A model generated the notes under the pieces. It was not told where the DNA came from. It worked only from the letters and a program-made list of their open reading frames with translations, and did no database searches. Source: Pristiophorus japonicus (taxonomy: Eukaryota). Taken from it: a stretch of DNA of 64,000 nt. Positions 5,530-57,143 of the stretch are shown here, piece after piece. The position numbers were made by a program, and so were the translations under genes. Each line of letters begins with the position of its first letter. Position 1 is the first letter of the stretch. Location: contig NC_091993.1 of assembly GCF_044704955.1 (NCBI RefSeq), forward strand, positions 117,366,001-117,430,000, given 5' to 3'.

Positions 5530-5566
5530 CGGGCAGGGAACACATGAGAAGAATCAGAATCCACAT
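5530..5566 (-). CDS. Leader (signal peptide) exon of paralogous CD300/MDIR-like receptor, copy A; remaining exons not seen (would lie left of the window)
   Basis: Reverse complement reads ATG TGG ATT CTG ATT CTT CTC ATG TGT TCC CTG CCC G|gtgagt = MWILILLMCSLP with a phase-1 donor. Same peptide as 12661-12697. Confidence 0.8.
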
Positions 5567-12660: not shown

Positions 12661-12697
12661 ATGTGGATTCTGATTCTTCTCATGTGTTCGTTGCCCG
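12661..12697 (+). CDS. CD300/pIgR-like (MDIR-like) receptor, copy B, exon 1: signal peptide
   Basis: ATG in aacaATG context; MWILILLMCSLP + G|gtgagt (phase 1). Joins exon 2 in frame to give ...SLPVSGALW. Confidence 0.85.
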
Positions 12698-13716
12698 GTG
12701 AGTGACATTCAGAGCGGGATATTCAGATAATCAGTGTTCGTTTGAGTCTAGTGTACGGTTCATGCAGCAGAGATGTTTAAATAATTGTAGACATGTAAAG
12801 GCACAAAATACTCGGCAAAAATATATATGAGTAATATTTGTGTGAAGTCTTGTCATCTCTTTTTGACTGTACTATTGTACAGCACACATACTTACCAATA
12901 TATACTAAACGGCATTATTCATTCTGGAACTCCCTGCCTAAACCGCTCCGCCTCTCTACCTCTCTTTCGTCCTTCAAGACGTTCCTGAAAATATATCTCT
13001 TTGACCAAGCTTTTGGTCACCTGTGCAAACTGTGGCTCGGTGTCAATTTTTTAAAAATCACATAATATTCCTGTGAAACGCCTTCCGAAGTTTCACTCCG
13101 TTAAAGGCACTAAGTTGTTGATGTTGTGATTGGAAAATAAAAGGCTAATTTAATTTTTAATCTGTCTATTTGGCAATCTTCCTCTGTTCAAACCTTCCTC
13201 TTTCTGATCCGATCTGTTTTACCTCACGTTTCGCTCCTTTAAAGATACACGAGTATCATATTCAAGATGCAAAGATAACCCATTTTAACCTGTAAAAAGT
13301 GATTTTTAATGTAGTCTGATGTCCAATATACACTGAAGACTGCAGTGGTAATAATCCCTCACACCGAACATGTCTGGAGCTTGCAATATTTCTGTTAATT
13401 AAAGTACAGCTGATGAAGTATTGTTTTATGAGGCTCTGTCAGTGACACTGTTCCTCACTGCTAGAGGCTGGGTCTATATTACTCCCAGTAAGTAACCGTT
13501 TCCTTCTCCTCTTTAACTCGAACCAAGTAGATTTAGCTTTTTCACTCCCGACCCATATTAACGATATTATGATATAATGGAAGTTTAGATTAACACTACC
13601 ACCTCTCCTCCATTTAGGACAAATATTTGTTCCCAGCAATGCTGCACTCCCAGTCCCACCCTACTCTAAACCACGACCGTTAATTCTATTACATCAAACC
13701 TCCCCATAAAGATTTG

Positions 13717-13915
13717 TGTTATGTATGCGAACCTCACCTGTGTGTAAGACTTGCCACTAGAGGGCACACCTATGGGAGACCTATGGATCACCTGTGTACC
13801 CTGGCGCAAGCAGGTATAAGAAGCAGGCCACCAAGTTGCTGCCTCACTTTGGAGTAATATTAAAGAGACCAAGGTCACAATGGTTTGAATTTACAACACA
13901 GTCTCGTCTGGAGAA
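13717..13915 (+). mobile_element. Truncated Gypsy-type LTR fragment
   Basis: Starts TGTTATGTATG exactly where homology to copies A and C stops. Contains tataag, attaaa and aaggtcaca in the same order as the LTR at 58550. Confidence 0.6.
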
Positions 13916-16405
13916 CTCCATTTTTATGGGATTCTGATCCCTCCATAAGTCTCTCAAATTTAAATCTGTCTGCACTTTTACAATATCCCTCTGGAGTTAT
14001 CATCTTTAAAGGTCATCTGGGCTGAAATGTCCATTCGAGATTAAAGAAAAACTTTATCCCCCACTCGACAAGGGTTTTCTGTCTCTGTCACTTCTGTGAA
14101 TAACCACCGAAAAAACTCACGCCATTTGCAATGGCCATTCGCCGCATAGATATTAAAGAGATCACAATTCAATTCCTCCATCTTTACCTTTAGCTGTAAA
14201 AATCTCCTTCAGTGTCCTCATCCACCAAGGCAAGGTTCTCTTTTATGGACGAACTCACTAAAACAGTCACCCCTCTATGGTTATTATTTGCACAACTTGC
14301 AAACACTTCTCCTTTCCAAACATTCTGAACTCTTTCTCGGATATCCTCATCCCAAAACACAACAGGTCAGTGCCTTTAAAACACTGCAACAACTGCTATT
14401 ATTTTTTCTCTCCCATCAGTCCATTCACATTAATCGAGACCAAGGTAATCATTGCTCCTAATAAAAGAAGTGTGCCTGATCAGCCATCCATCATTTAATC
14501 TCTGGATGTTCCCTCCTCTCATGCTCCTTCCCAACTTTTTGGGCAGCTGCTGCTTTCTCCTGCAGCCTCTGGTTCTTTTTCACCTCCGGTTTGAACTTTC
14601 CCTGCAGTTTCAGCCTCTTCCTTACATTACATTTAGGCCATGGAGCTGCCCCTTCTCCCTTCTTCTGCCCCTCATTAACCTTTCCCTTTCCACATGATGC
14701 CGTACCATCCCACCTCACCAATTCTATGTCTCCATTCTCCTCTGCCTCCTCACTCTCAAGCTCTTCTGTAATCTCCTCCAATCTTGCTGCCTATGGGTGT
14801 CTTTGTCTCCCTGCTCCCATCCTGCTGCCCCTTTAAGCTTTTGCATCCTCACCTTTTCTTACCCCCTTCTGCTCCCCGAGATTTACAAGCCCCCATCTTT
14901 CTTTGGAGTACTTACACTTACCCCGCACCCCGCTCCCACCTCTGCTCCCCCCATGGATACCTGATCCTTTAAGAAAAAGCGAGCCTTATTATGGCGAAAC
15001 TATCTGCAGCATCACGCCCTCCATAACTGTGGTCAAGATCTTATAATCCACATTTAATAATGTGAACGGGCCTCCAATTCTTCAGATCCCTTCTATCCCC
15101 TTTATTTTCATAAGCTAAGTTTATGATACCCCTCCTCATAGATGGGGACAGGGTTCATTCAGTATTCATCTCCTTAAAAACCTCTAAGACCAAATGGACT
15201 TAATCTCTCAGCATTCTTTACAGAATTCTGCATAGTCCATCGGACCCAGGGCTTTCCCTTCACTTTCATTAATGATCTCTGTCCTTGACCTGTGATATCC
15301 ACCACTGACTTTGTCCTTTTCTACCACACTTGGTGTATTTTCCACTATTTCCATCCTGTTTTCTGCTCTGCAATTTTCTGCCTCTTCTTGAACTCTTTTC
15401 TCATTCCGTTCGGTCGCTGTGTCCACTGCCTGCTCTGCTCTTCTGGCCCCTCCCCTCACACCTCCTACTCCTTCTCCCATCTCCTCGTCGCTCACGGGGC
15501 TTGCTTCTGCCTCGCACTCACAGCGGCTGGGGCCTTTGTGACAAACCACACAGCTCTCTGCCTTGCAGTTCCGAGCGATGTGTCCAGACTCACCACAGTT
15601 ATAACAGTACAAGTCAGGACAGCTTTGTACAAGATGGTCGTGTCCAAGACAGTAATATCAAACCTTCACCTGATTATCATGCAGTACCCGGGAGTACTGC
15701 ACTCCGTCCATTGTCTCAAATTTCATACTGTAGGGTAATGACTTCACCCTCTCTGGAAAACGCACCGTTACACAACGGGTTCCATCTGCTACCCACATTC
15801 CTGGATAGTATCTCCTCTTTATTACTGAGAAAAGTTTAATGTCCCACCACACCAACTTTTTTTTATCAGCACATCATCCTCAACACAAACCAGCAGGTTT
15901 AAAAATGAGACCACCACCTCTTCAGTGTACAGCAGACATACATCCAAGTATTCTCATTAACCTTCAGGCTCAGTAATAGCCTCTTCAGCTACTCTCGGCC
16001 ACTGACCACCACTTCCAATCCAACAATCGGCTTTGGTCAGCAAGCAAAGCAACTTCCCTCGCCGCAGTTCTCATGTTCTGCCTGGATGATATCCCAAGCA
16101 GCCACTCCTTATCCTGGCAGTGAACTATCACCGTGTCATCTTTTCCAAACTGCCTGAGGTCCCGGCCCAAATATTTGGGCCTTTTATTCTCACTTCCCAA
16201 AACATTTTCTTCCCTGATTAAATTCATCCTGGGAGCATTGTCCTCAGAGGGGCTGGCACTCCAGGCCTCTCAGCAGCCATCTGGCTGCTGTTTATGGGAC
16301 AAACAGGCCCTAAAATTTGAAATAAAACACCAACAATGTTTTACAAACTCACTCCAAATCCTGCAGTAATCAGCAGCACCTGCTCACTCCTAGCCCCTCC
16401 CGCCT
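13905..16405 (-). mobile_element. Tx1/L1-clade LINE, 5' part (ORF1 with CCHC knuckle + start of APE endonuclease), decayed
   Basis: ORF1 'YYPGMWVADGTRCVTVRFP..SLPYSMKFET..SRVLHDNQ' and 'CYNCGESGHIARNC'. ORF2 start MITLVSINVNGL at ~14452-14417 and LFNIYAA at ~14160-14140. Confidence 0.8.
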
Positions 16406-16679
16406 AGAGAATGTTAACACTGAGCCACAGCTGGCTCAATAACAACAGTGACTGTACTTCAAAAGTAAATCAATGGCTGTGAAGCGCTTTGGCACATCCT
16501 GAGCATGTGATCAGACACTATATTAATGTTTTCTTTCATCACAAACTGGAAGGAACTCAACTGTATCAATAGATGTAGGGGTGAGATTCCTCTGTACAGA
16601 GTGGTAACTCTTATTAAAATGTATCTCTTTGTATTAAGCAGTTATTTCCTGTTCAATTTCTGAAATGTTGTCTCCTCAG

Positions 16680-17000
16680 TTTCAGGTGCATTGTGGGCAA
16701 ATAATTCAGCAAGAGGAATTGTGGGAAGAGCGATCACCATAGAATGTCACTATGACCAAAGGTACCGGTCACATGTGAAATATTGGTGTCATGGCAGGAC
16801 TCGGCTATGTTCAGTTGTAGTAACAACAGATGATCAACATGGATGGGGAGGAAGAGTGTCAATCACAGATAACCAGACAGCAGGAATATTTGTTGTTACG
16901 ATGAAGGACCTTCGCTCAGCAGATGCAGGATGGTACAGTTGTGGTATTACACAATCTGGCATTAATACAATGTTTCCTGTAGAGCTACAAATATCTCACG
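16680..17000 (+). CDS. Copy B exon 2: Ig V-set domain of CD300/pIgR/TREM type
   Basis: Acceptor tctcctcag|, donor G|gtacgt (phase 1-1). 'ITIECHY..KYWC..LC..RVSITDN..FVVTMKDL..DAGWYSCG' includes the extra C-C' cysteine pair typical of CD300/pIgR domains. Confidence 0.92.
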
Positions 17001-17627
17001 GTACGTTTCTCAGCGATGTGCTTTATTACTCTCTACTGAACTGTCTGATCAATGTTGCATCTGGGAGGAAACATGAGAGCTCCGATATCCCGAGGCTCCG
17101 CAGCAGTGCAGAGTCTCACAGGTAGTGGGCAGAGGTGGGGAAATCCGACTCACGGTGCACACTCCCAATCCGTGGCCTGCCCAACTTCCCGACCAGGAAT
17201 TTCAAGTATTATGGGACTAACAATTCCTTGAACTACAGAGTGTTGTGCCAGACATCACATGGGAGGCTCACCACATGTCCCTGTCTCTGAGCTGTATTAA
17301 ATGTCCCACTGTCAGAGGTTTGCCTTCAGACTGAAACTAATAGTCAGACAATAACAAAAGCAGTGAGCAGCAAGTCGTTACTAATGGTATTAATTCCTTG
17401 ACATTAATAAAAAATACCTGTAATCCACAGAGTTTAACAGATTTCCTATTTTCCTGATATGATGGGTAGCTCACATCATCAATGAGATATTTGGTCAACT
17501 TTATAAACAATATAAAATAAAATTGAAAAGCTGGTCATTGTTTTGATGGTAAAATAAGCCTCGTTATTAAATGTTGAGACATTAGCTTCTTTCCCAGCAT
17601 AACCTCCTGATGGATCAACTGTTAGAT

Positions 17628-20600
17628 GCAATGGTCTGGATATTAACTTCGAGACATGTTCGGTGCAGGGGATCCAATATCCCCTGGGAAACCCGGAAGT
17701 AATTTCAGTCTGTCTGTCTGGCATTTTAACGCAGCCGGCCCATTATAATTTACTCCCGGGTTTGGCGTTGTATGCGCGGTAATGGGAGTGGTGCGGACAC
17801 ACATGATGTGATCTTAACTGAAGTATTTAAAGGATCAATCCAAAGATGGAATTTGGAGAAGTTGGGAGGCTGCGAACATCGACGGCAATTGCAGAAGATC
17901 GACTCAGGACGCTCAAAGCCCGCGCCCCACTTTAACCACGCTTCTCTTGATGTGCTGATGGGGGCAGTGAGGAGTCGGGGAGAGATTTTCTTCCCAGAAA
18001 CGAGAGGAAGAAACCTATAAAGGAGCCGTGCCTGGATGTGGCTGAAGGTGTCAGCAGCAGGAGCATTATACCACGCTTCTGCTGCTGACACCAAGAAGTT
18101 CTTTAATGACCTAACTAGCTTAGGAAAGGTGAGTACAGCTGCACATTCACTATCTACCCATTGTACATATCACCCACCCCCTCACCCTGTCTTATCAAGT
18201 CTACTGCATTATATCGCTCCTCATACCCACTTACCTTGCATGCGCACCCAAACTTCTCTTTCTATGCAATTCCTCTCATCCCCATCTCTCCATCCACCTC
18301 GGCCTCCCATCCTGATTCTTATGCAATATCATGCCTCTCACTGATAGTCACCCTCACCATATGCACGACATCCATCAGGTGAACACATGCCACTCCAGTC
18401 ACTCATGGGTCTGTTCTTTCTCCCGTTACAGGAGAAGAGAGCGCAGACACTCGCGAGCGAGAGAGAACCACAGGAGGTCCTCCACAGATCTCACAGCTAA
18501 CAAATGCAGAGGAGGAAGCGCTGGAGATCAGTGGCAACCCGGTGTCCCTGGCTATTGGAGATGGGGACCTCCCAGCTAACTGGTGACAGAATTAAATATC
18601 ATGAACCCACATGTCATACAACACTCAATCAGGAGAGAGCTTTAGTTTCCTGAACAATTGGGACCGCTTCTGGGGTAGGTGGGACCTGTACAAGTCGGAC
18701 AGGTTACACCTCAACAGACACGGGACCAATGTTCTCACGGGTGGTTTTGATAGTACGGTTGGGAGGGATTTAAACTAGCTTGGCAGGGGAATGGGAACCT
18801 AGGAGAGGGCTCTGAGCTAGTTAGGGTGGGTGAGAGCTCAGATGAACAGAACCCCAAGAAAGAATGCAAAAGGCAGGAGGCAACAGAGCAGAGTAGCACT
18901 GGGGTAAGTGTAAACCACAAGGTGATAGGAAGGGACAATATGTATGAATATAAAGGGGCTGCAGGAGGGGTCAAAACTAAAAATCATGGTTTAAAAACTA
19001 GTATTAAAACACTTTACCTAAACGCACGCAGCATTTGAAACAAAGTAAATGAGTTGATGGCACAAATCATTACAAATGGGTATGATTTGGTGGCCTTACT
19101 GAAACGTGGTTGCAGGGTGGCCAAAACTGGGAATTAAACATACAGGGGTATCTGACAATCTCACCAGCACATCTCCCTCTCCATGTCTCTCCATCCTCCC
19201 AGCAGCCTGAACTACCATGTCTGCCATTATATCAGAATAAGGGTGTCTGGCAATTCGGAAGGATAGACAAGAAGGAAAAGGAGGTGGGGTAGCTCTGTTA
19301 ATAAAGAAATATATCAGGGCAGTTGTGAGAGATGATATTGGCTCTAATGAACAAAATGTTGAATCATTGTGGGTGGAGATTAGAGATAGTAAGGGGAAAA
19401 AGTCACTGGTGGGCATAGTTTATAGGCCCCCAAATAATAACTTCACGGTGGGGCGGACAATAATCAAGGGAATAATGGATGCATGTGAAAAAGGAACGGC
19501 AGTAATCATGGGGGATTTTAACCTACATATCGATTGGTCAAATCAAATCGCACGGGGTAGCCTGGAGGAGGAATTCATAGAATGCATACGGGATTGTTTC
19601 TTAGAACAGTATGTTACAGAACCTACAAGAGAACAAGCTACCTTAGATCTGGTCCTGTGTAATGAGACAGGAATAATAAACGATCTCCTAGCAAAAGATC
19701 TGCTCGGAATGAGTGATCACAGTATGGTTGAATTTGCAATACAGATTGAGGGTGAGGAAGTAGTGTCTCAAACAAGCGTACTATGCTTAAACAAAGGGGA
19801 CTACAGTGGGATGAGGGCAGAGTTAGCTAAAGTAGGCTGGGAACACAGACTAAATGGTGGCACAATTGAGGAACAGTGGAGGACTTTTAAGGAGCTCTTT
19901 CATAGTGCTCAACAAAAATATATTCCAGTGAAAAAGAAGGGCGGTAAGAGAAGGGATAACCAGCCATGGATAACCAAGGAAATAAAGGAGAGTATCAAAT
20001 TAAAAACCAATGCGTATAAAGGGCCAAGGTTAGTGGGAAACTAGAAGATTGGGAAAATTTTAAACGACAGCAAAGAATGACTAAGAAAGCAATAAAGAAA
20101 GGAAAGATAGATTCCGAAAGTAAACTTGCGCAAAACATAAAAACAGAAAGTAAAAGCTTTTACCGATATATAAAACGGAAGAGAGTGACTAAAGTAAATG
20201 TTGGTCCCTTAGAAGATGAGAAGGGGGATTTAATAAAGGAAAATGTGGAAATGGCTGAGACCTTAAACAATTATTTTACTTCGGTCTTCACAGTGGAAGA
20301 CACAAAAACCATGCCAAAAATTGCTGGTCACGGGAATGTGGGAAGGGAGGACCTTGAGACAATCACTATCACTAGGGGGGTAGTGCTGGACAGGCTAATG
20401 GGACTCAAGGTAGACTAGTCCCCTGGTTCTGATGAAATGCAACCCAGGGTATTAAAAGAGATGGCGGAAGTTATAGCAGATGCATTCGTTATAATCTACG
20501 AAAATTATCTTGGCTCTGGGGAGGTACCAGCGGATTGGAAAGCAGCTAATGTAACGTCTCTGTTTAAAAAGGGGTGCAGACAAAAGGCAGGTAACTATAG

Positions 20601-23565
20601 GCCGGTTAGTTTAACATCTGTAGTGGGGAAAATGCTTGAAGCTATCATTAAGGAAGAAATAGCGGGATATCTAGATAGGAATAATGCAATCAAGCAGATG
20701 CAACATGGATTCATGAAAGGGAAATCATGTGTAACTAATTTACTGAAATTCTTTGAGGATATAACGAGCATGGTGGATAGAGGTGCACCGATTGATGTGG
20801 TGTATTTAGATTTCGAAAAGGCATTCGATAAGGTGCCTCACAAAAGGTACTGCAGAAGATAAAGGTACACGGAGTCAGAGGAAATGTATTAGCATGGATC
20901 GAGAATTGGGTGGCTAACAGAAAGCAGAGAGTCGGGATAAATGGGTCCTTTTCGGGTTGGAAATCGGTGGTTAGTAGTATGCCACAGGGATCGGTGCTGG
21001 GACCACAACTGTTTACAATATACATAGATGACCTGGAAGAGGGGACAGAGTGTAGTGTAACAAAATTTGCAGATGACACTCAGATTAGTGGGAAAGTGGG
21101 TTGTGTAGAGGACACAGAGAGGCTGCAAAGAGATTTAGATAGGTTAAGCGAATGGGCTAAGGTTTGGCAGATGGAATACAATGAGGGAAAATGTGAGGTC
21201 ATCCACCTTGGAAAAAAAAACAGTAATAAGGGATATTATTTGAATGGAGAGAAATTACAACATGCTGATGTGCAGAGGGACCTGGGGGTCCTTGTGCATG
21301 AATCCCAAAAAGTTAGTTTGAAGATGCAGCAGGTAATCAGGAAGGCGACTGGAATGTTGGCCTTCATTGCAAGAGGGATGGAGTACAAAAGCAGGGAGGT
21401 CCTGCTGCAACTGTATAGGGTATTGGTGAGGCCGCACCTGGAGTACTGCATGCAGTTTTGGTCACCTTACTTAAGGAAGGATATACTAGCTTTGGAGGGG
21501 GTGCAGAGGCGATTCACTAGGCTGATTCTGGAGATAAGGGGGTTACCTTATAATGATAGATTGAGTAGTCTGGGTCTTTACTCGTTGGAGTTCAGAAGGA
21601 TTAGAGGTGATCTTATAGAAACATTTAAAATAATGAAAGGGATAGACAAGATAGAGGCAGAGAGGTTGTTTCCAATGGTCGGGGAGACTAGAACTAGGGG
21701 GCACAGCCTCAAAATATGGGGGAGCCAATTTAAAACCGAGTTGAGAAGGAATTTCTTCTCCCAGAGGCTTGTGAATCTGTGGAATTCTCTGACCAAGGAA
21801 GCAGTTGAGGCTAGCTCATTGAATATATTCAAATCACAGATCTATAGATTTTTAACCAATAAGGGAATTAAGGGTTATGGGGAGCAGGTGGGTAAGTGGA
21901 GCTGAGTCCACGCCCAGATCAGCCATGATCTTGTTGAATGGCGGAGCAGGCTCGAGGGCTAGATGGCCTACTCCTGTTCCTAATTCTTATATTATGTTCA
22001 CCTGGTTTCAGCAGAGAGTCAGATATAATCATCCTCATTATGATAGGTTTTAACATTCTTATTTTGCCAGTACTAATTCATATCTTTTCTCTCTGCCAGG
22101 GCCTTCACACATGCAGCAGCAGTCAGTGGACCTTGCAGACGATGAACCCTCAGAAGAACTGATTCCTTCTGAGGATGCACCATCACAGGACTCATGCTTA
22201 CCAGGCACCAACGCAGATACTCACACTTTGGTGGGCCCAGTTAGACAGATAATTGGGTTTTCACCTGGAGACTCACACTGCACAAGTGAGCAAGAACAGA
22301 GAGTGATGGCCGGGACAGCTGCTCAGAGTCCGGGTCGGAGGGCACAGTACTCTCCAAACCCTGCTCAGCTGGACACAGGTTCTGTACCCCGATGGCCAGC
22401 GATGAAAAGGATAATCATTGAGGGGCAGCAGAAAACCTGGTACATACTGTCAGGCCTCCCACCGCACTGTCCACAATTGCAGAGAGACTTGAGGAGTCCA
22501 TGTCAGGCAGGAGTGGGTTGATGTCACAGGGCATTGCATTGATTGTTTTCTTCCATGAATAGAATGGCCAACTCCATGCAAGCATTGACCACGGCCGTGT
22601 AGTCTCTTGGTGCCAACATATCTGGTGCCTTAAATAGTATGACAGACACCTTATCCTTGGCCTTACAGCGCATCACTGATCTGCACCAAGCTGCTCACCA
22701 GCAGAGAGGTAGGAGTGAAATGTGACTAGGCCAGCAGATGGTGGAAGACGATATGGAAGTGGGGACTCCACCATTGTCTCACCCTACTCTTCAGTCAGTA
22801 CCCGACATGCTGCCTCCTTTCCCGATGGCTGAGTCTGCCCCTGCACAGATGCGGGTGGAGCAGACTTTGGCTGAGCCCTCATGGGCTCCAAACCCAGAGG
22901 TCATCGACCAAGTGCTTCTCAACAGTCAGAGCAGGGATCTGAGCAGCCTACCTCTACCTCTGCTGAAGTCATAAATGTTGCACCACATAGAAGCGGTCGG
23001 AAAAGGCAGAGTAAAGCTGTGTAATTGCAGAAGTATATCCACGTGTGTGTTTGAGTAATTGGTTGCTGTGTGGCAACTGGTCTTTTCAGTTGCTCATTCA
23101 TGAATGGGAAGACATGAATTGACGGAGAGCAATGGGGGAATGGGCAATGGGTGGTTGGTGGGTAGCAGGTCTGCTTTGTGTCAGTGGGATTGGTGGGGGT
23201 GTGGGGAGTTGAGAGCGGCCGTTGGATGTGGTTGTTACATCAGCCCAGTGATGGTAACTGAGTGAACCTTCCAGCTATAAGGAAACGCTGGCATCGCGGG
23301 CAGCATTATCATTGAATGGTGCTGCGTTAGGGTCGCAATCTCCTCCTCCTCATCCTGCTCCTTTTCCTCTTATCTTCCTCCTCTGTCTCGGAATAGTCCG
23401 CAGACAACGTGTGCTCAGCTCCTAGTTCCTCCTGCAGCTCCAATCTCGCTGCTGCGCAGTGTTGTGCAGAGCGCAGCAAACCACCATCATTCTGGAGTCC
23501 CAGGCTGGTGAGCATTGAAGGGCATCTCCGGATCTTTCCAGGCAACTGAAGCGCATCTTGAGGGT
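17628..23565. mobile_element. Harbinger transposon relic with convergent Myb-like gene (+) and transposase 3' end (-), interrupted by a CR1
   Basis: + strand: APHFNHASLDVLMGAV..WLKVS..KKFFNDL then a gtgagt donor at 18129, with further exon-like pieces at ~18432 and ~22100. - strand ~23460-23562: LKMRFSCLERSGDALQCSP..MMVVCCALHN (Harbinger DDE transposase C-terminus). Confidence 0.75.
18630..21998 (+). mobile_element. CR1 LINE copy 1 (ORF1 end + whole ORF2, multiple stops/frameshifts), chimeric
   Basis: APE, RT (PQGSVLGP, FADD) and C-terminal motifs in ORFs 19325-21905, plus 3'UTR and tail. An ~80-bp non-CR1 insert lies at ~19160-19238. Confidence 0.95.
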
Positions 23566-24074
23566 GATGTCAGGTAACACTTGTTCATAAAAAAGGCTCA
23601 TGAAATTCTGGAACTGTCTAACCCAGAAATTTGTTGAGGCTTGGGATCAATTGAAAATTTCAAAACTGAGAATGACAGATTTAAGCAAGGGTATTAAGTT
23701 TGATGGAACCGAGGCAGGTAGATGGAGTTAAGATACTGATCATCCGAGATCTAATTGAATGGCGGAATAGGTTCGAGGGGCTGAAAGGCCCACTCCCTTT
23801 TCTATGTTCAGGACCCCCTGCTGATTTTTCAATGTATCGCAGCGTATGAGTAGAAAAGTGATCTAACGCCACAAAACATGTAACAGATATCTGCCAGTTT
23901 TTTGCCTGCATATTCTGCTATAGTTTTCTCGGACTGTCTCCAAATCATTCACATTCGAGAGTCAAACGATGAAACAACAATGGAGACTGGCTACCTACTA
24001 CTGAGAGAAACTGTTAGCCCTGATTTTCACATTGACACATCCACAGTATCATTGCTGCTGTCCCGAGACCTGCT

Positions 24075-26594
24075 ATAAGAACATAAGAACAGAAGAATTA
24101 GGAACAGGAGTAGGCCATCTAGCCCCTCGAGCCTGCTCCGCCATTCAAAAAGATCATGGCTGATCTGGCCGTTGACTCAGCTCCACTTACCCGCCCGCTC
24201 CCCATAACCCTTAATTCCCTTATTGGTTAAAAATCTATCTATCTGTGATTTGAATACATTCAATGAGCTAACCTCAACTGCTTCCTTGGGCAGAGAATTC
24301 CACAGATTCACAACATTCTGGGAGAAGAAATTCCTTCTCAACTCGGTTTTAAATTGGCTCCCCCGTAAGGTGATCAAAACTGCACGCAGTACTCCAGGTG
24401 CGGCCTCACCAATACCCTGTACAGTTGCAGCAGGACCTCCCTGCTTTTGTACTCCATTCCTCTCACAATGAAGGCCAACATTCCATTCGCCTTCCTGATT
24501 ACCTGCTGCACCTGCAAACTAACTTTTGGGATTCATGCACAAGGACCCCCAGGTCCCTCTGCACCTCAGCATGTTGTAATTTCTCCCCATTCAAATAATA
24601 TTCCCTTTTCCTGTGTTTTTTTTCCAAGGTGGATGACCTCACATTTTCCGACATTGTATTCCATCTGCCAAACCTTAGCCCATTCGCTTAACCTATCTAA
24701 ATCTCTTTGCAGCCTCTCTGTATCCTCTACACAACCCGCTTTCCCACTAATCTTTGTGTCATCTGCAAATTTTGTTACACTACACTCTGTCCCCTCTTCC
24801 AGGTCATCTATGTATATTGTAAACAGTTGTGGTCCCAGCACCGATCCCTGTGGCACACCACTAACCACCGATTTCCAACCCGAAAAGGACCCATTTATCC
24901 CGACGCTCTGCTTTCTGTTCGCCAGCCAATTCTCTATCCATGCTAATACATTTCCTCTGACTCCGCGTACCTTTATCTTCTGCAGTAACCTTTTGTGTGG
25001 CACCTTATCGAATGCCTTTTGGAAATCTAAATACACCATATCCATCGGTACACCTCTATCCACCATGCTCGTTATATCCTCAAAGAATTCCAGTAAATTA
25101 GTTAAACATGATTTCCCTTTCATGAATCCATGTTGCGTCTGCTTAATTGCACTATTCCTATCTAGATGTCCCGCTATTTCTTCCTTAATGATAGCTTCAA
25201 GCATTTTCCCCACTACAGATGTTAAACTAACCAGCCTATAGTTACCTGCCTTTTATCTGCACCCTTTTTTAAACAGAGACGTTACATTAGCTGCTTTCCG
25301 ATCCGCTGGTACCTCCCCAGAGTCCAGAGAATTTTGGTAGAATATAACGAATGCATCTGCTATAACTTCCGCCATCTCTTTTAATACCCTGGGATGCATT
25401 TCATCAGGACCAGGGGACTTGCTACCTTGAGTCCCATTAGCCTGTCCAGCACTACCTCCCTAGTGATAGTGATTGTCTCAAGGTCCTCCCTTCCCACATT
25501 CCCATGACCAGCAATTTTTGGCATGGTTTTTGTGTCTTCCACTATGAAGACCGAAGCAAAATAATTGTTTAAGGTCTCAGCCATTTCCACATTTCCCATT
25601 ATTAAATCCCCCTTCTCATCTTCTAAGGGACCAACATTTACTTTAGTCACTCTCTTCCGTTTTATATATCGGTAAAAGCTTTTACTATCTGTTTTTATGT
25701 TTTGTGCAAGTTTACTTTCATAATCTATCTTTCCTTCCTTTATTGCTTTCTTAGTCAATCTTTGCTGTCATTTAAAATTTTCCCAAACTTCTAGTTTCCC
25801 ACTAACCTTGGCCCTTTATACGCATTGGTTTTTAATTTGATACTCTCCTTTATTTCCTTGGTTATCCACAGCTGGTTATCCCTTCTCTTACCGCCATTCT
25901 TTTTCACTGGAATATATTTTTGTTGAGCACTATGAAAGAGCTTCTTAAAAGTCCTCCACTGTTTCTCAATTGTGCCACCGTTTAATCTGTGTTCCCAGTC
26001 TACTTTAGCTAACTCTGCCCTCATCCCACTGTAGTCCCCTTTGTTTAAGCATAGTACGCTTGTTTGAGACACTACTTCCTCACCCTCAATCTGTATTACA
26101 AATTCAACCATACTGTGATCACTCATTCCGAGAGGATCTTTTACTAGATCGTTTATTATTCCTGTCTTATTACACAGGACCAGATCTAAGATAGCTTGCT
26201 CCCTTGTAGGTTCTGTAACATACTGTTCTAAGAAACAATCCCGTATGCATTCTATGAATTTCTCCTCCAGGCTACCCCGTGTGATTTGATTTGACCAATC
26301 GACATGTAGGTTAAAATCCCCCATGATTACTGCTGTTCCTTTTTTACATGCCTTCATTATTCCCCTGATTATTGTCCGCCCTACCATGAAGTTATTATTT
26401 GGGTGTCTATAAACTATGCCCACCAGTGACTTTTTCCCTTACTATCTCTAGTCTCCACCCACAATGATTCAACATTTTGTTCATTAGAGCCAATATCATC
26501 TCTCACAACTGCCCTGATATCATCCTTTATTAACAGAGCTACCCCACTTCCTTTCCCTTCTTGTCTATCCTTCCGAATTGTCAGATACCCCTAT
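24075..26594 (-). mobile_element. CR1 LINE copy 2, 5'-truncated, with an internal deletion at ~24365
   Basis: ORFs 24177-26423 give APE/RT motifs; (ataagaac)n tail at 24075-24098. Confidence 0.95.
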
Positions 26595-26616
26595 GTTCTG
26601 ATATAATGGCAGACAT

Positions 26617-29500
26617 AAGAACATAAGAACATAAGAATTAGGAACAGGAGTAGGCCATGTAGCCCCTCGAGCCTGCTCCGCCATTCAATAAGATCATGGC
26701 TGATCTGGCCGTGGTCTCAGCTCCACTTACCCGACCGCTCCCCGTAAACCTTAACTCTCTTATTGGTCAAAAATCTATCTATCTGTGACTTGAATACATT
26801 CAATGAGCTAGCCTCAACTGCTTCTTTGGGCAGAGAATTCCATAGATTCACAACCCTCTGGGAGAAGAAATTCCTTCTCAACTCGGTTTTAAATTGACTC
26901 TCCTGTATTTTGAGGCTGTGCCCCCTAGTTCTAGTCTCCCCGATCAGTGGAAACAACCTCTCCGCCTCTATCTTGTCTATCCCTTTCATTATTTTAAATG
27001 TTTCGATAAGATCATCCCTCATCCTTCTGAACTCCAACGAGTAAAGACACAGTCTACTCAATCTATCATCATAAGGTAACCCCCTCATCTCCGGAATCAG
27101 CCTAGTGAATCGTCTCTCTACCCCCTCCAAAGCCAGTATATCCTTCCTTAAGTAAGATGACCAAAACTGCACGCAGTACTCCAGGTGCGGCCTTTCCAAT
27201 ACCCTATACAGTTGCAGCAGGACCTCCCTGCTTTTGTACTCCATCCCTCTCGCAATGAAGGCCAACATTCCATTCGCCTTCCTGATTACCTGCTGCACCT
27301 GCAAACTAACTTTTTGGGATTCATGCACAAGGACCCCCAGGTCCCTCTGCACATCAGCATGTTGTACTTTCTCCCCATTCAAATAATATTCCCTTTTATT
27401 GTTTTTTTCCCCAAGGTGGATGACCTCACACTTTCCGACATTGTATTCCATCTGCCAAACCTTAGCCCATTCGCTTAACCTATCTAAATCTCTTTGCAGC
27501 CTCTCTGTGTCCTCTACACAACCCACTTTCCCACTAATCTTTATGTCGTCTGCAAATTTTGTTACACTACACTCTGTCCCCTCTTCCAGGTCATCTATGT
27601 ATATTGTAAACAGTTGTGGTCTCAGCACCGATCCCTGTGGCACACCACTAACCACCGATTTCCAACCCGAAAAGGACCCATTTATCCCGACTCTCTGCTT
27701 TCTGTTAGCCAGCCAATTCTCTATCCATGCTAATACATTTCCTCTGACTCCGCGTACCTTTACCTTCTGCAGTAACTTTTTGTGTGGCACCTTATCGAAT
27801 GCTTTTTGGAAATCGAAATACACCACATCCATCGGTACACCTCTATCCACCATGCTCGTTATATCCTCAAAGAATTCCAGTAAATTAGTTACACATGATT
27901 TCCCCTTCATGAATACATGTTGCGTCTGCTTGATTGCACTATTCCTATCTAGATGTCCCGCTATTTCTTCCTTAATGATAGCTTCAAGCATTTTCCCCAC
28001 TACAGATGTTAAACTAACCGGCCTATAGTTACCTGCCTTTTGTCTGCCCCCTTTTTTAAATAGAGGTGTTACATTAGCTGCTTTCCAATCCGCTGATACC
28101 TCCCCAGAGTCTAGAGAATTTTGGTAGATTATAACGAATGCATCTGCTATAACTTCCGCCATTTCTTTTAATACCCTGGGATGCATTTCATCAGGACTAG
28201 GGGACTAGTCTACCTTGAGTCGCATTAGCCTATCCAGCACTACCCCCCCAGTGATAGCGATTATCTCAAGGTCCTCCCTTCCCAATTCCTGTAACCAGCA
28301 ATTTTTGGCATGGTTTTTGTGTCTTCCACTGTGAAGACCGAAGCAAAATAATTGTTTAAAGTCTCAGCCATTTCCATATTTCCCATTATTAAATCCCCCT
28401 TCTCATCTTCGATAGACCAACATTTACTTTAGTCATACTTTTCCGTTTTATATATCAGTAAAAGCTTTTACTATCTGTTTTTATGTTTTGAGCAAGTTTA
28501 CCTTCGTAACCTATCTTTCCTTTCTTTATTGCTTTTTTTAGTCATTCTTTGCTGTTGTTTAAAATGTTCCAAATCTTCTAGTTTCCCACTAACCTTGGCC
28601 ACCTTATACGCATTGGTCTTTGATTTGATACTCTCCTTTATTTCCTTGGTTATCCACGGCTGGTTATCCCTTCTCTTACCACCCTTCTTTTTCACTGGAA
28701 TATATTTTTGCTGCGCACTATGAAAGAGCTCCTTAAAAGTCCTCCACTGTTCCTCAATTGTGCCACCATTTAGTCTGTGTTTCCAGTCTACTTTAGCCAA
28801 CTCTGCCCTCATTCCACTGTAGTCCCCTTTGATTAAGCATAGTACACTCGTTTCTGACACAACTTCCTCACCCTCAATCCGTATTATAAATTCAACCATA
28901 CTGTGATCACTCATTCCGAGAGGATCTTTTACTTGGAGATCATTTATTTTTCCTGTCTCATTGCACAGGACCAGATCTAAGATAGCTTGCTCCTTTGTAG
29001 GTTCTGTAACATATTGTTCTAAGAAACAATCCCATATGCATTCTATGAATTCCTCCTCCAGGCTACTCCGTGCAATTTGATTTGACCAATCGATATGTAG
29101 GTTAAAATCCCCCATGACTACTGCCATTCCTTTTTCACATGCCTCCATTATTCCCTTGATTATTGCCCGCCCCACCATGAAGTTATTATTTGGGGGCCTA
29201 TAAACTACGCAACCATCAGTGACTTTTTCCCCTTACTATCTCTAATCTCCACCCACAATGATTCAACATTTTGTTCATTAGAGCCAATATCATCTCTCAC
29301 AACTGCCCTGATATCATCCTTTATTAACAGAGCTACCCCACCTCCTTTCCCTTCTTGTCTATCTTTCCAAATCATCAGACAGCCCTGTATGTTTAATTCC
29401 CAGTTTTGGCCACCCTGCAACCATGTTTCTGTAATGGCCACCAAATCATACCCATTTGTAATGATTTGTGCCATGAACTCATTTACTTTATTTCGAATGC
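26617..29500 (-). mobile_element. CR1 LINE copy 3, 5'-truncated, with 7-bp TSD CAGACAT
   Basis: 489-aa open RT ORF at 26717-28186 and APE ORFs at 28498-29507. cagacat occurs at 26610-26616 and 29501-29507. Confidence 0.95.
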
Positions 29501-29671
29501 CAGACATGGTAGTTCAGGCTGCTGGGAGGATGGAGAGACATGGAGAGGGAGATGTGCAGGTGAGATTCCAACATGGCAGGCCCTGGCTGAGATGCAGAAG
29601 TGCTGAAAATTGGAGAGTGTTTGATTTTTAAATGTTCAGTCAGTATCTGAATGTTTTTTTCTTTCCCACAG

Positions 29672-29995
29672 AATCCGTGTCAGTTCCTGTACTTAGATAT
29701 TTATCGCCACCAAATGTCTCATGTTTTGGGGGCTCAGTGTCAGTCTCCTGTGAGTCTGTCCAGGGATCCCTTCCGATTCAGTACACATGGTATGAACAGA
29801 CCCCGATTAAAGGTTCAAAGATCTCTGACACCAATAAACTGGATCTACATTGTCAATCCTTCAAACAGCAACATCATCAATATTACTGCACAGCCTCAAA
29901 TAATCAGGGAGAGAAATCTAGCGAAATGGTCGATGTGTCAGTCTTCAACAGAGCAGGGAAGCACTGCAGTTATGTGACACAAATCAGCGACAGTG
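29672..29995 (+). CDS. Copy B exon 3: Ig C2-type domain (FcR/FCRL/PECAM-like)
   Basis: Acceptor ttttttctttcccacag|, donor G|gtaagt (phase 1-1). 'VSVPVL..SVSVSCESVQGSLPIQYTWY..YYCTASN..SEMVDVSV'. Confidence 0.9.
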
Positions 29996-30084
29996 GTAAG
30001 TGTTACTTTAAACAAACAATATGGTCAATTAATTATTTTAATGAATGTCTATCCAAACTGTTTGTGAGCCAGAAATATATACAG

Positions 30085-31015
30085 AAAATACTGGAAATCT
30101 GAGCAGGTCAAGCAGAAACAGTGGAGAGAAACAGAGTTAACTTTTCAGGTCTGTGACCTTTCATCAGACCTGGAAAAGTTTGAGATGTAACAGATTCTTA
30201 AGGAAGTGTAGGGGCAGTGAAAGGGGGAGGGGAGGAAAGAACGAAAGGGAAGGTCTGTGATAGGGTGGAAGGCAGGAGAGATTAGAGAGACTAAAGGGAT
30301 GATGGGCAAAACTGAGACGGTAATGGAACAAGTTAAGCAACAACTAAATGGGCTATGAATGGCAGAATCATCACCAGCTGCCATGGGAAGGAGAGAAAAA
30401 GAGATGCTTTGTAAAAAAGGGAAATATATGGTCAGAGATTATGGTCTGAAATTATTGAACTTGTTGTTGAGTCCTGATGACTGTAAAGTGCCTATACAAA
30501 AGATGAGAAGCTGTTTCTCGACTTTGCGTTGAGCTCCATTGGAACAGTCCAGGAGACCGAGGACTGAGGGATCCCAGTTGGAGTGGAGCGGAGAGTTAAA
30601 ATGACAGGCGACAGGAAGCGTAGGGTCACACTTACGGACTGAATGGAGATGTTTTGCAAAGCGGTCACCCAATCTGCGTTTGGTCCCCCCAATGTAGCGG
30701 AGACCACATCGTGATCAGCGAATGCAAGATACTAAGTTGAAATAAGTACAAGTAACCCGCTGATTCACCTGGAAGGAGTATTTTGGGCTTTGGACATTGG
30801 GCAGAGAGGAGGTAAAAGGGCAGTTGTTGCATCTCCTGTGCTTGCACAGGAAGGTGCCGTGGGAAGGGGAGGGCTTGCTGGGGGTGATTACGGAGCAGAC
30901 CAGGGTGTCGCAGAGAGTCCGTTCCCTTCGGAATGCTGGGAGGGGCGGGGAGGGGAAAATGTGTTTGGTGGTGGGATCATGCTGGAGGTGGCGGACATGG
31001 CGGAGGATGATCCAT
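30085..31015 (-). mobile_element. Penelope-like element remnant (GIY-YIG endonuclease end)
   Basis: Reverse complement at ~30740-30440 reads FNLVSCIR*SRCGLRYIGGTKRRLGDRF..PVACHFNS..IFCIGTLQSSGLN. Confidence 0.75.
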
Positions 31016-31644
31016 TGTGATTGTGAGCCAGTCCCTGATATGCGCGATCCCCTGCATGGTGTGTGCCGTTTGCTGTTGCTACCGCAAGCTCAGAAAACCC
31101 AGCCCAAGAGGCAGGAAATTACCATGGCCAATATTATAGGCGACTGTTCAATGTGTTTGTGTGACATTCATCTGCTGATTAATTTGACAGAAACAATCTT
31201 TTGACAACGAAATGCCATCTGAAATGTATCTGCTTGTCCACTAATATCGACAGTAGTAATTCCTGGTCTAATATTTCCCTCTGCACTCAATGCACAGCTA
31301 CGTTCCTTTTCCACTGAGGACACTTTCTGGAACACAATTGCACTTGCTCGGCCCCCAGAATACATTTTCCGGGTGTGGTAGAGACCGACTCTCTGCCTGG
31401 AACTTTCCTTTACACTTGCGCGGGGATACCTGGTTTGTAATCGCACCAACCTGAGCCCTTTAACTGTCCCAATAGTATATTATCAGTAATATGGGCCATG
31501 GTCAGGTGACAGCAGCATCTCTCCTTGCTGCCAGAGAGGGGAAATTAAATTATCCAAATCCATGCTATCAGCCAAGTATTGAGGTTCCGTTTGACTACAA
31601 GTGAAAATTAGGTGAATCTGAATTTTGTTCCCTTGTTTCAAAAG

Positions 31645-31765
31645 GACCTGAATATTCTTGTGAAGGTGTTTCAATGGTATCACCAACAACTGCACATTCC
31701 ACAAATACAAATATAATTTCCACTGATAATCGAAACCATTCTTCAGGATCCAAATTGACGAAAAG
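31645..31765 (+). CDS. Copy B exon 4: Ser/Thr-rich stalk
   Basis: Acceptor ttcccttgtttcaaaag|, donor AG|gtacaa. Its phase 1-2 exactly bridges exon 3 (ends phase 1) and the TM exon (starts phase 2). Reads GPEYSCEGVSMVSPTTAHSTNTNIISTDNRNHSSGSKLTK. Confidence 0.75.
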
Positions 31766-33732
31766 GTACAATGTTCTCATCGCTGGTGTTCTGATTGGCA
31801 TTGCTTTCATGTGAGAGATTAAATGTTCTTTAATAGTTTTGTATTATTTTGGAATGTAGCTCCTCAGAATGGGAATGGTGACTGGGTTTACATCATGTTG
31901 TTGTGTTAGCTTCTTAACGATGGTGCTGTCTTTGTTGCTGGAAAATAAGAAAGCAATAAGCACTTCCATTTTGCAGCTCCTTAGATGGGGCTTTTTTCAT
32001 TATTCAACTTGATTAATATTTCACTGTTAACATAATCTCACGGAGTTGCACCACTTACCAAAGAACCGCAATGTCAGTTTTCCTTGCCCCTTATCTGTTC
32101 TGGTACTGACAGGAAAGTTGTCTTTTTCCCCTTCTCAGTTCCCCGACGTTAGACATTGTTCCCAAACTGAGAGGGTAGGAAGGATATCTGATTCCAGCTA
32201 TTCAGCAATTGCCTGTTAGAAGGTGCATAAGAACAGTGTAGGGTGATGCTAATCTGACTATCCTTACTCCCTGAGGAGATGCTTCCCTCAGCTGGCCAGT
32301 CACTTTCATAAAGTCCTCAATTATATAATAGTGGCTTACCATTACAGCTATACATTGTGGACATGTTAATGAACTTTGCTTCATTTGATCTTTATCTAAT
32401 GATCAGAAAGTTGTCTTTCCTGCATCAATCAAATATTAGTTTACTTTCCCAGCTAATGTCCCTTGGCTCTGCTGTTTTACATTGATGCACTATACTAAGA
32501 TTACAATGTAAACAGGAGCGTTGGGATTTTCCTCACTTTGGCGGGTCCTTTGCAGGTGATGTTGGTGGCAGGTCGCGGCCCCACTGCTGGCTTCATCCCG
32601 CTCTGTGAAATGCTTTTCCATTGATGGGGTTAGTTAAGCCCACCCAGTGCATTTCCCAGTCTAATTAGAGGAAACGCCATCTGCTTCATTAGTGTCCTTT
32701 AGGGAAAGAAATCTGCCTTACTTGGTCTGGCCTCTATGTGACTGCAGACCCACAGCACTGTGTGTGCCTCTTATCTGCCCTCTGATGGCCTCGCAAGCCC
32801 CTCAGTTGAAACAAACCATTTCACCATGCAGAGTGCAGCAGTTCAAGAAGGCGGTTCACCGTCACCTTCTCAAGGGCAATTAGTGATTAGAAATAAATGC
32901 TGGCCGTCTCTCAGAGGGTTGTGAATCTTTGGAACGAAAAAAAGTTCATGTGGCAACCAGCGTGTACAGAATCAAGTGAAGCAAATCTATCCCTGGCCAC
33001 TGGGGCAGCAATGTGCACAGGGTGATGATGCCTGTTGTCGCGCGCAGGTTGGTGTTGTTGCTGGTGCTGCTGGTATGCCTGGCACTGCTGGTGTAGGGGC
33101 TGATCGTGGTGGAATTCTGAGGACCAATGTGTGACAGTATAAATGGCACAAATGTTGATGGAATAGATGGCAGCTGAAGTACAGATGACAGACGTAATCT
33201 GATAATGGTGAAAGAGTTCTTCCAAAGAGATAATACTCGATGGAGAGTGGAGAGTGGAAAGCCTGCAGAATCTGTGCTGGAAATGGACTGAGAAACAGCT
33301 TCTGCCTGAGGAAAGTCAAGATCTGTCAGGTGGGAGCTTTTACTGTGCATTTGAAGCTGTCAAGTAATCAGCTGGAACAATGGCCACTGAACTCACACCT
33401 CAGGTTGGCAACCGTGGTCCCCGAACAGCGTGGTTACCGCGGCCTTTAAGTTAAAGAGAAAAGGTAAGCGACAAAAGCCTGTTAATGACCTGTCACCAAG
33501 GCAATAATGAGCCTAAGTGGGTCGCCTGCTGCTACCTCTAGAATCCGCTCAGCACTAACATACGGCGGGTTGATTGCAGTATCCCGACCCACTGTCAAAA
33601 AAACTTTCCCAGCAGATCCGCCACTGATCCCACCCCCACACACCGGAAAATTCCCCCTGTTATGAATGTTTCAAACACAAAGCAGTCTCATTCCCTTCGA
33701 ATGTGTTTTTGTATTTCTTCCCTTTTGCTCAG

Positions 33733-33823
33733 TTACATTATATGGAACGTGGGACGCTGGCTGCTCTTTGCTCTCCTGGTGATTTGTACTATTTCAGTCA
33801 CAAGGTGTACAAGAAAATCGAAG
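33733..33823 (+). CDS. Copy B exon 5: transmembrane segment with NxxR motif
   Basis: Acceptor tttcttcccttttgctcag|, donor AAG|gtagga. Reads (S)YIIWNVGRWLLFALLVICTISVTRCTRKSK. Confidence 0.85.
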
Positions 33824-35552
33824 GTAGGATTTACGGACTTTATATGAATCATTCTATCAATTCTTTCAAAAATATTGATCACAGATACTGTAAAGAAAAA
33901 CTTGCATTTCTATATGAAACAAAGCGTTTTACAGCCAATATGAGTTAGTTTTGAAGTGTTCCTGTTGTAATGTAGGCAAAATTCTGTGGATTGATTGTTC
34001 AGGATGTCTTCGGGCTTCTTGAGCCTTGTTGTGGCTGCATCCATCCAGCAGTATTAGCCTGGGATAACTTCCACCAATAAATGAAAGTTTCACTTTATCA
34101 TTGAAGGGTCTTGTAAGAATACTTACACAGTGCCTTTCAGGTCTTCAAGATGTCCCAAGCTCTTTACATCCAATTAGTTATTTTTGAAATGCTGCTGTTG
34201 TTATGTAGGCAAAAGAGGCAGAAAATTTGCACACAGCAAAGACCCCAAAACAGCAAAGGAGATAAATTACCAGATAGTTTGTTTTGGTGAACTCCTCTGC
34301 TCTTCTTCATATGGTGCCGCGGGATCTTTTATTTTCACCTGAGCAAGCAGACGGGGCCCTCGGTTAAAGCTTCTTCTGACAATAAACCACTATCTCTGTA
34401 TGGTGCTGCAGTGTCAGCCAAGATCATGGGCCGAAATGTGTGGTTGGTGAAGAACCTCTGGAGTTCGTCCCTGACTCACAGAAAGATAGGAAAGTGGCTC
34501 CGGAGTTACAGAGTCTTCGGGTCCTGGGCCTCTTGGCGGTCGCCTGCGTAAAGGCGCACGGACCCCAGGGACGCAGGCGGTTCGGACAGCTTGCATAAAC
34601 TTGGCTCGTATTCCCTTGCACTTAGAAGGTTGAGGGGTGATTTGATGTAAGTATTTAAAATTGTTAAGAGATTTGCTTGGCTAGATACAGAGAAGCAATC
34701 AAGTACAAAGGGACATCATCGAAAAATGAGAGGAAATCCAATTATCAGTGAAATTAGGAAGCACTTTTTCATACATTGGCTGTGGAAAACTGGAATTTGC
34801 TGTTCTTAAAGGCAGTGGATTCTGGCCAATTGAAATTGTTACATTTGAGATCACGATGTATTTGTTGGGTAAGAACACCAACGGATGTGGATCAAAGGCG
34901 GGTAAATGGAGTTGTGCCACTGATCAGCTGTGATCCAGTTATACGGTGGAACAGGCTCAAAGGGTTGAATGGGCTGCTCCTGTTGCTTTGTTCCTATGTA
35001 ACCCGCCCGTTATAGAACCCTCCCGACTTTCATTCCATTGATATAAAACAGTCGTTACAAGAAACGGAAGGGAGGAAATGGGAAAGGCTAAAAAAAAGCA
35101 CTTTGCTGTAGAGCACCAGAGACAATGGTTTTCACACAAGAACACAGAGACAGTTAAACGTGTCCGGTCGAGCACCAAGGTGCTCAGACACAGACCCAAT
35201 GCTATTGTTGCTGGGAACCGTGACTGGACTGTCGGAAATGTGTTTAACAAAGTAGCCAAGTCAATCGTTTTCTGCTGTCAACTGTCCACCATCTAAGCTG
35301 CAGGGAAACACTTGTTGCATGTGAGTAAATGGTGTTACATGTTTTCAAGAGGGGCCCAACTAGCACCTTTTCTCATCACACATACAATAGTGATAGGGGA
35401 GGGAGGACTGTGATCTCAAGACAGCTCCAGTCCATCTCAAGCTTCTCCTCCATTTGTTGTCAGTTCCAGAATTCTGTTCAGAGCTGACATGTAAAACAAT
35501 GCATCGTTCTCAGAATCAATGAATCTGACGCCTTAAATATTTTCTTTTTCAG

Positions 35553-35600
35553 TTACTCAATGAATCGGCTCGTCACAGCTTGACCAATGTGGTAAAATGA
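35553..35600 (+). CDS. Copy B exon 6: short cytoplasmic tail and stop
   Basis: Acceptor ttttctttttcag| in phase 0; reads LLNESARHSLTNVVK*. AATAAA lies ~100 bp downstream. Additional small tail exons cannot be excluded. Confidence 0.6.
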   Translation, partial: LLNESARHSLTNVVK

Positions 35601-43057: not shown

Positions 43058-43094
43058 ATGTGGATTCTGATTCTTCTCATGTGTTCCCTGCCCG
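43058..43094 (+). CDS. Leader exon of paralogous receptor, copy C; downstream exons not found in the window
   Basis: (ATG)ATG TGG ATT CTG ATT CTT CTC ATG TGT TCC CTG CCC G|gtgagt; identical to the copy A exon. Confidence 0.8.

Positions 43095-54088: not shown

Positions 54089-54120
<32 letters not shown>

Positions 54121-57111: not shown

Positions 57112-57143
<32 letters not shown>

Follow-up and report, generated by a model that had tools for sequence, protein, structure and literature searches.

The window analysed here, a stretch of 64,000 nucleotides from Pristiophorus japonicus (G000:C17:117.366-117.430 Mb), carries an intact gene, designated G4, for a 313-residue receptor with one V-type and one C2-type immunoglobulin (Ig) domain. 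G4 is read, with a probability of about 0.7, as an intact single V-C2 modular domain immune-type receptor (MDIR) and the activating partner in a paired cluster, whose V domain binds ligand and which signals through a zeta-family adaptor with an immunoreceptor tyrosine-based activation motif, held by an arginine in the transmembrane (TM) segment. The product would be a type I membrane glycoprotein on leukocytes. Ligand would occupy the cleft formed by the CC' and FG (complementarity-determining region 3, CDR3) loops, as in CD300lf. For Arg276 the partner would be the Asp in a dimer of CD247/FcR-gamma type; a single adaptor of this kind was found in the genome, and it appears CD247-like. The opposing signal would come from sister genes that combine the same ectodomain with tails bearing tyrosine motifs, and the disulfides C180-C218 and C137-C233, formed within the chain, would fix the base of C2 to the stalk.

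G4 was spliced from the genomic sequence as six exons of 37, 321, 324, 121, 91 and 48 nt, 942 nt in all, which encode 313 amino acids (aa) and a single, terminal stop codon. The introns (3982, 12671, 1649, 1967 and 1729 nt) all run from GT to AG, with phases 1, 1, 1, 2 and 0, and splicing reproduced exactly the stop-free model of a first-pass annotation of this DNA. The protein is ordered as hydrophobic leader, V, C2, Ser/Thr stalk, single TM segment and 22-residue tail. N-glycan sequons outside the membrane are present at residues 20, 77, 134 and 258, and the V-domain cysteines form, by position, the pairs C35-C100 and C49-C56. The leader exon occurs eight times in the cluster; it matches the N-terminus of the database protein P0005, and the skate MDIR5 N-terminus resembles it. 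Because the same exon set and splice sites are found in eight paralogues, and MDIR5 can be aligned from V through the tail, the exon arrangement is not due to chance. G4 is a real, intact gene.

The same annotation had placed the exons in 23 kb of transposon debris. A Pfam match was obtained for 6 of 23 open reading frames (ORFs), and debris of this kind was found: intron 2 contains three long interspersed nuclear element (LINE) endonuclease fragments and one reverse transcriptase (RT) fragment, and intron 1 a zinc knuckle. Between 40 and 92% of each intron is made up of 14-mers repeated within the 1.17-Mb region, paralogue duplications included. Loss of the V or C2 exon would leave the reading frame intact; loss of the stalk or TM exon would give a frameshift and truncation. 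Retroelement-like ORFs with a weak zinc-knuckle match also lie just 5' of G4, at window positions 8341-12048 on the minus strand, between divergent leaders.

RNA comparison was carried out with contigs from probable-RNA runs of related species, aligned at 80% likeness; the run search with the G4 query returned no run containing even half of the query words. The V to C2 junction was found at its predicted ends in a relative's contig, X1 (record 1). C2-exon sequence stands directly before the stalk in the X7 contig (a loose end), and relatives' matches begin at 31644. The stalk to TM junction is present in a relative's contig, X2, with a shorter stalk, and the TM to tail junction (from 33823) in X2 and X5, which derive from two studies, with four differing letters. 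Of the five junctions that the first-pass annotation had proposed to map, four, all but the leader junction, are thus supported for the family rather than for this copy.

The V exon matched the Pfam V-set family with 41.9 bits. Against PDB sequences the best single-domain match was mouse CD300lf (76 bits, 40% identity), and among the matches listed pIgR domains reached at most 43.5 bits and TREM2 37 bits. An AlphaFold model of G4 V-C2 was obtained from 34 sequences with a mean predicted local distance difference test score (pLDDT) of 81.3. For this model CD300lf was ranked first by both Foldseek and VIA-align (Z 19.5, root-mean-square deviation 1.3 Å over 104 residues). The C2 exon matched the Pfam families Ig_3, Ig_2 and Ig_C17orf99; its best PDB match, a weak one, was FCRL5 with ∼31 bits per domain, and the modelled C2 fold has an additional strand at 205-212. 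The earlier description of a CD300-type V joined to an FCRL-type C2 was therefore borne out by separate searches of each domain, which led to CD300lf, FCRL5 and MDIRs rather than to unrelated Ig families.

In a search of a large protein collection with the C2 domain 139 of 293 candidates were matched, and the 120 matches listed were all labelled cartilaginous fish (120/120), as were all 64 matches to the V domain. The closest named relatives of both domains are skate MDIRs. C2 is 65% identical to that of skate MDIR3 and 63% identical to that of MDIR5, and MDIR5 was aligned to G4 residues 13-307 with 54% identity (E 7e-103), from V through TM and tail; the leader, TM and tail are homologous to those of MDIR5. 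V and C2 trees were built without mammalian rows and with a midpoint root, and for this reason no order of events is claimed from them. Local paralogues grouped together in the V tree (25 rows, support 94/92) and the C2 tree (18 rows, 98/95), and the V domains grouped with MDIR domains, apart from eight V-only neighbours (91/86, not starred).

By its sequence G4 is thus a member of the known but little-studied MDIR family, as first proposed, and an ordinary one that represents no new receptor type. Few innate receptor families of Ig type are known in cartilaginous fish, the MDIRs being one of them, and MDIRs are expressed in leukocytes or lymphoid tissue; G4 may be a functional leukocyte receptor, as the first-pass annotation had suggested. 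PMC3031540 describes the MDIRs as a multigene family with activating-type members and members carrying immunoreceptor tyrosine-based inhibition motifs. The available portions of PMC6795676 and bioRxiv 2021.06.11.448072 contained nothing on MDIRs.

The G4 locus agrees with such a multigene family. A survey of 574 kb around the window located nine V-C2 units, G1-G9, at 117.24-117.66 Mb. Five (G2, G4, G5, G6 and G7) have an Arg TM and a short tail, whereas in four (G1, G3, G8 and G9) the TM is of another type and the long tail carries tyrosine motifs. The V exon is nucleotide-identical in the activating-type G6 and G7 and the inhibitory-type G8, and G7 and G8 are ∼97% alike over ∼22 kb, up to the TM region. 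One ectodomain would thus have come to stand on both tail types by recent duplication or conversion. G4 itself is a mosaic: the 3' end of its V exon is closest to G1 (88% vs 80%) and its stalk to G2 (99%). The nine-gene array is likely to be a cluster of paired activating and inhibitory receptors, and the locus offers clean gene models for such an MDIR set. Two units are broken, G3 by a stop in C2 and G9 by stops in V. The G2 leader exon was not found in the cluster region, where there are eight leaders for nine units.

Further observations were made on the units around G4. G2 (G000:C17:117280773-117290690, L011-L012) has an intact V-C2-stalk-Arg TM-tail series; it may be an orphan, or may receive its leader from G3 by splicing. 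The leader copy at window positions 5530-5566 (minus) is the start of G3, head-to-head with G4 and 7 kb from it; the G3 V lies 47 kb from this leader, across a stretch of 200 N. A leader copy at 43058-43094 (plus) is the start of G5. In the G6, G7 and G8 leaders (G000:C17:117468118, 117518024, 117568012) residue 11 of the signal peptide is Arg, not Leu. Intron 1 of G5 measures 21 kb vs 12 kb in G6-G8, by either real expansion or assembly artefact; low-complexity, CT-rich sequence takes up ∼16 kb of it (window positions 47584-63939) and includes a run of 139 N and an insert resembling a retroelement at ∼59296-60600. Eight more distant V-only CD300/pIgR-like domains are located on the minus strand at G000:C17:116988180-117195714 (L002, L055-L072), two as adjacent pairs and two copies without the CC' Cys pair.

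G4 is already partly in databases, inside a longer model. P0005 (1283 aa, labelled Pristiophorus japonicus) is 100% identical to the G4 V and C2, and its residues 1-227 are the G4 leader, V and C2. It differs from G4 in omitting the stalk, TM and tail and in running on through four more genes over ∼227 kb; in order, it comprises the V-C2 of G4, that of G5, G6 as far as its tail, a leader with a V, a further V-C2 and the inhibitory-type end of G8. A different explanation for G4 starts from this model: its V-C2 would mainly be a module of a read-through transcript, in which the C2 donor is joined to the V acceptor of the next gene and an MDIR3/5-like receptor results. The phases are compatible (1 to 1), P0005 does continue from the G4 V and C2 into those of the next genes, and multi-module MDIRs exist in skates. 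Against this, every downstream unit is equipped with a leader, stalk, TM and tail of its own, and in a contig from a relative C2 is joined to the stalk. Skipping of the stalk would also strip C137 of its likely partner, and the internal modules of MDIR3/5 are without C137. Both a TM and a signal peptide moreover lie inside P0005, so that on sequence grounds it is very probably an annotation fusion of five genes, and the read-through explanation is considered very improbable. An internal leader or TM was found in 11 of 127 stored homologues. The skate model P0063, in which a TRIM69-like protein is joined to an MDIR-type V-C2-TM, is a probable fusion artefact.

G4 has extra cysteines at residues 137, 180, 218 and 233. 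For a family-wide survey 252 C2 modules were found, of which 11 were dropped for a missing strand-F match and 241 scored. Both C180 and C218 are present in 226 of the latter. C233 has an equivalent in no internal module. C137 is missing from 56 of the 88 internal ones; MDIR3 and MDIR5 are among these cases, while their stalk-bearing C2 has both C137 and C233. From this co-occurrence the extra cysteines most likely pair within one chain, as C180-C218 and C137-C233. The first-pass annotation had proposed extra or inter-chain disulfides for them; the cysteines are present and extra pairing is favoured, but they are family-wide and intra-chain bonds are likelier. C137 is kept in 50 of 54 internal modules in shark and chimaera models vs 11 of 74 in batoids, and the multi-module models with a retained internal C137 number 25/27 and 6/48, respectively. 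This pattern agrees with a fusion of single-module genes in the shark models and with genuine multi-module receptors in batoids, but could also arise from lineage effects.

Selection was estimated over the eight paralogues G1-G8, with G9 left out as broken. The mean ratio of nonsynonymous to synonymous differences per site (pN/pS) was 1.64 for V and 0.41 for C2, and minimal changes (nonsynonymous/synonymous) were 67/14 in V and 20/14 in C2 (Fisher p = 0.009, approximate). V changes are concentrated at the N-terminus and in the regions BC, CC', C'C'' and FG. According to PMC6166816, phosphocholine, a metal ion and the murine norovirus capsid are bound by CD300lf in its CC'-CDR3 cleft. In a residue register inferred from the aligned ranges, CD300lf Tyr34, Cys36-Cys44, Gly96 and Met100 have counterparts in the G4 V. 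The CC' and FG loops belong to the most variable ones in the paralogues, so that a ligand that shifts, of microbial or lipid nature, would be more likely than a fixed self protein. The analysis thus singles out loops that probably bind ligand, and makes ligand, adaptor and family evolution testable.

The G4 TM begins with Asn273-Val-Gly-Arg276 (NxxR), and the tail is without Tyr; from these two features the receptor is likely to be of the activating type. The W-x-V-x-R-W TM was found in 40 of 120 homologues, and with the Arg position left free in the pattern Arg was present in 42/42 homologous TMs from sharks and rays. A TM helix is present in the model of the homologue P0105, in which C2 and stalk are of low confidence (mean pLDDT 68.7). 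FcR-gamma associates with Xenopus receptors whose TM has an N-terminal NxxR and whose tail is short, and with mammalian receptors as well (PMC2413239). G4 has these features of FcR-gamma/CD3-zeta-coupled receptors, and adaptor association is predicted for it. A zeta-family TM exon with Asp was the single genome match to Pfam TCR_zetazeta (L052:1450-1653, G000:C11:77.27 Mb), and is presumably CD247-like. With this single match, and with FcR-gamma stated as not found in sharks in PMC4016189, a CD3-zeta-type adaptor appears likely for G4, and the locus supplies a candidate adaptor for MDIR signalling. A prediction of the complex between the TM exon and two zeta-family TM copies (score 0.04, mark 0.34) was used neither for nor against this assignment.

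Several points count against the activating, ligand-binding receptor proposed here. As to signalling, the Asn of NxxR is poorly conserved (4 of 42 homologous TMs, with Lys in 16 and Asp in 12), and the original MDIR paper reportedly classed MDIR5, whose TM matches that of G4, as lacking activating motifs. The adaptor is also putative, FcR-gamma being reported as not found in sharks; when a further zeta-family adaptor was looked for at E ≤ 10, in a lower-bound search that scored one candidate and was not directed at DAP12/DAP10, none was found. These points, together with the location of Arg276 near the outer end of the helix and the failure to find FcR-gamma in this genome, would suit a surface receptor without an activating output of its own (a decoy, an adhesion molecule or the user of another adaptor), in which Arg is merely a membrane-interface residue. 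The invariant Arg of sharks and rays and the Tyr-tail twins in the same cluster fit an activating/inhibitory pair instead, and such a receptor is regarded as unlikely. As to the ligand site, the metal-binding Asp98 of CD300lf corresponds, in the register used above, to Asn108 in G4 (Asp in 7 other aligned paralogues, and in 98 of the 188 V domains placeable by pattern among 270 homologous V domains), and Trp89 to Ser, so that lipid binding is not assured. The selection p-value is approximate because the paralogues are recombining and not independent. For the disulfides, the association of C137 with C233 is weak in terminal modules alone (34 with both, then 3, 7 and 3; p = 0.10), and the fold models of V-C2 and P0105 returned no disulfide assignments.

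The RNA support was likewise from relatives, the run search having identified no run of Pristiophorus japonicus. The relatives' contigs are possibly from paralogues, the X7 contig running on into an inhibitory-type TM, and the leader-to-V junction lay outside the compared stretches and rests on protein homology. G4 might therefore have an intact sequence and yet be silent or have died recently, a common fate in clusters that evolve by birth and death. Stops in two of the nine units and the unit without a leader found are in keeping with this, as is the region 5' of the G4 ATG, where likeness to the window's other two leader regions stops after ∼55-65 nt and repeat is found further upstream. 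Such decay is nevertheless considered quite unlikely for G4. Large insertions have left its six exons, ten splice sites and all Cys undamaged, comparison of its C2 with each paralogue gives a pN/pS of 0.2-0.4, and two TTCC (Ets-like) cores are kept at -106 and -92.

The nearest flanking genes found, in scans of 148/181 and 148/224 candidate ORFs, were AHCYL1-like at 116.90-116.95 Mb and G-alpha-i at 117.76 Mb; further out lies a gene of the CCD48 family. SARG, an IL10-family match, BYSL, NFYA, a FOXP gene and APOBEC2 are on the same contig as the cluster; DAD1 is on contig C1. The human CD300 region is linked to NHERF-family markers, which here are on other contigs than the cluster. Human PIGR, FCMR and FCAMR lie between IL10 and C1orf116 (SARG). 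A position in the pIgR/FCMR/FCAMR locus was rejected, SARG (108.4 Mb) and the IL10-family match (109.5 Mb) being ∼8 Mb from the cluster. TREM genes are positioned between NFYA and FOXP4 (PMC4855714). TREM micro-synteny was also rejected: NFYA (119.8 Mb) and FOXP (129.2 Mb) are on the same side of the cluster (117.0-117.7 Mb), and APOBEC2 is at 78.7 Mb. With the cluster in neither the PIGR nor the TREM interval, linkage is stated at chromosome level only. Searches for literature on shark CD300/pIgR synteny, AHCYL1-CD300 and TMIGD3-CD300 gave nothing relevant, in a coverage from which subscription journals were mostly absent.

The SARG and IL10-family markers on the cluster chromosome, which flank PIGR in human, and the pIgR, FCMR and FCRL5 matches in the PDB would suit an Fc receptor of sharks that binds IgM or IgW, its V resembling domain 1 (D1) of pIgR/FCMR and its C2 resembling FCRL5. 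This identity is judged highly improbable. CD300lf was far higher per domain, by sequence (as above) and by structure (Z 19.5 vs 16.6), and the cluster lies well outside the SARG-IL10 interval. The CDR1 loop of pIgR D1 has a role in Ig binding; its longer form was absent from the alignment, the V loop of G4 being shorter. Rapid change of the V loops would poorly suit a conserved self ligand.

A wider account that joins these strands is put forward tentatively, as possible but doubtful. The MDIR cluster would be an ancient CD300/TREM/pIgR-type locus on a linkage group with TREM and PIGR markers, shaped by a pathogen-driven race between paired receptors and activated through CD3-zeta, FcR-gamma having not yet arisen; shark MDIRs would mostly be single V-C2 receptors and the long shark models mostly fusions. 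If so, V loops diversify while activating and inhibitory genes keep identical V exons, and long 'pIgR-like' or 'FCRL5-like' shark database proteins would be recognisable as fusions by an internal C137.

Coordinates of the G4 features are collected in Table 1. A retrovirus-like element (RT, RNase H, integrase zinc finger and a weak env-like match) was located ∼250 kb to the right of the cluster (L110:7129-9531 and L111:717-1145).

Table 1. Features of G4, numbered from the first letter of the window.
Feature	Position	Strand	Description
Exon 1	12661..12697	+	ATG and signal peptide aa 1-12, phase-1 GT donor
Exon 2	16680..17000	+	V-set Ig domain, CD300/pIgR/TREM type
Intron 2	17001..29671	.	12.7 kb, LINE fragments on both strands
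Exon 3	29672..29995	+	C2-type Ig domain, FCRL5-like, extra Cys 137/180/218 and C-terminal extra strand
Exon 4	31645..31765	+	Stalk, 37% Ser/Thr, contains Cys233
Exon 5	33733..33823	+	TM helix; NxxR from Asn273 (33746-33748) and Arg276 (33755-33757)
Exon 6, coding part	35553..35600	+	15 tail residues without Tyr, then TGA
Candidate poly(A) signal AATAAA	35699..35704	+	Follows the coding part of exon 6

Of the known systems, skate MDIR5 (P0075) and MDIR3 (P0073) share with G4 the types of leader, V and C2, and MDIR5 in addition the W-x-V-x-R-W TM and a similar short tail. They differ in module number, MDIR5 having two V-C2 modules and MDIR3 the order V-V-C2-V-C2 where G4 has one V-C2, and the MDIR5 TM has KxxR in place of NxxR. 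Neither is a one-to-one orthologue of G4, as the local paralogues group together in the trees. The ectodomain of mammalian CD300 receptors is a single Ig domain, and their TM charge is a mid-helix Lys or Glu. G4 resembles CD300lf/CLM-1 in the V fold with its extra CC' disulfide (C49/C56 by position), in several pocket residues matched by register and in its paired activating/inhibitory cluster; it differs in having an additional C2 and a TM Arg that is N-terminal rather than mid-helix. FCRL5 has strand-B/C and strand-F/G motifs in common with the G4 C2, but no extra Cys in the aligned part and no V domain. The ectodomains of Xenopus XFL and of mammalian LILRA2, PIR-A, NKp46, GPVI and OSCAR as well as Fc-alpha-R are composed of C2 domains only. 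These receptors resemble G4 in the N-terminal NxxR, the short tail and the setting among Tyr-tail partners (PMC2413239). In XFL the TM and tail are encoded on one exon, whereas G4 has its tail on an exon of its own, together with a CD300-type V.

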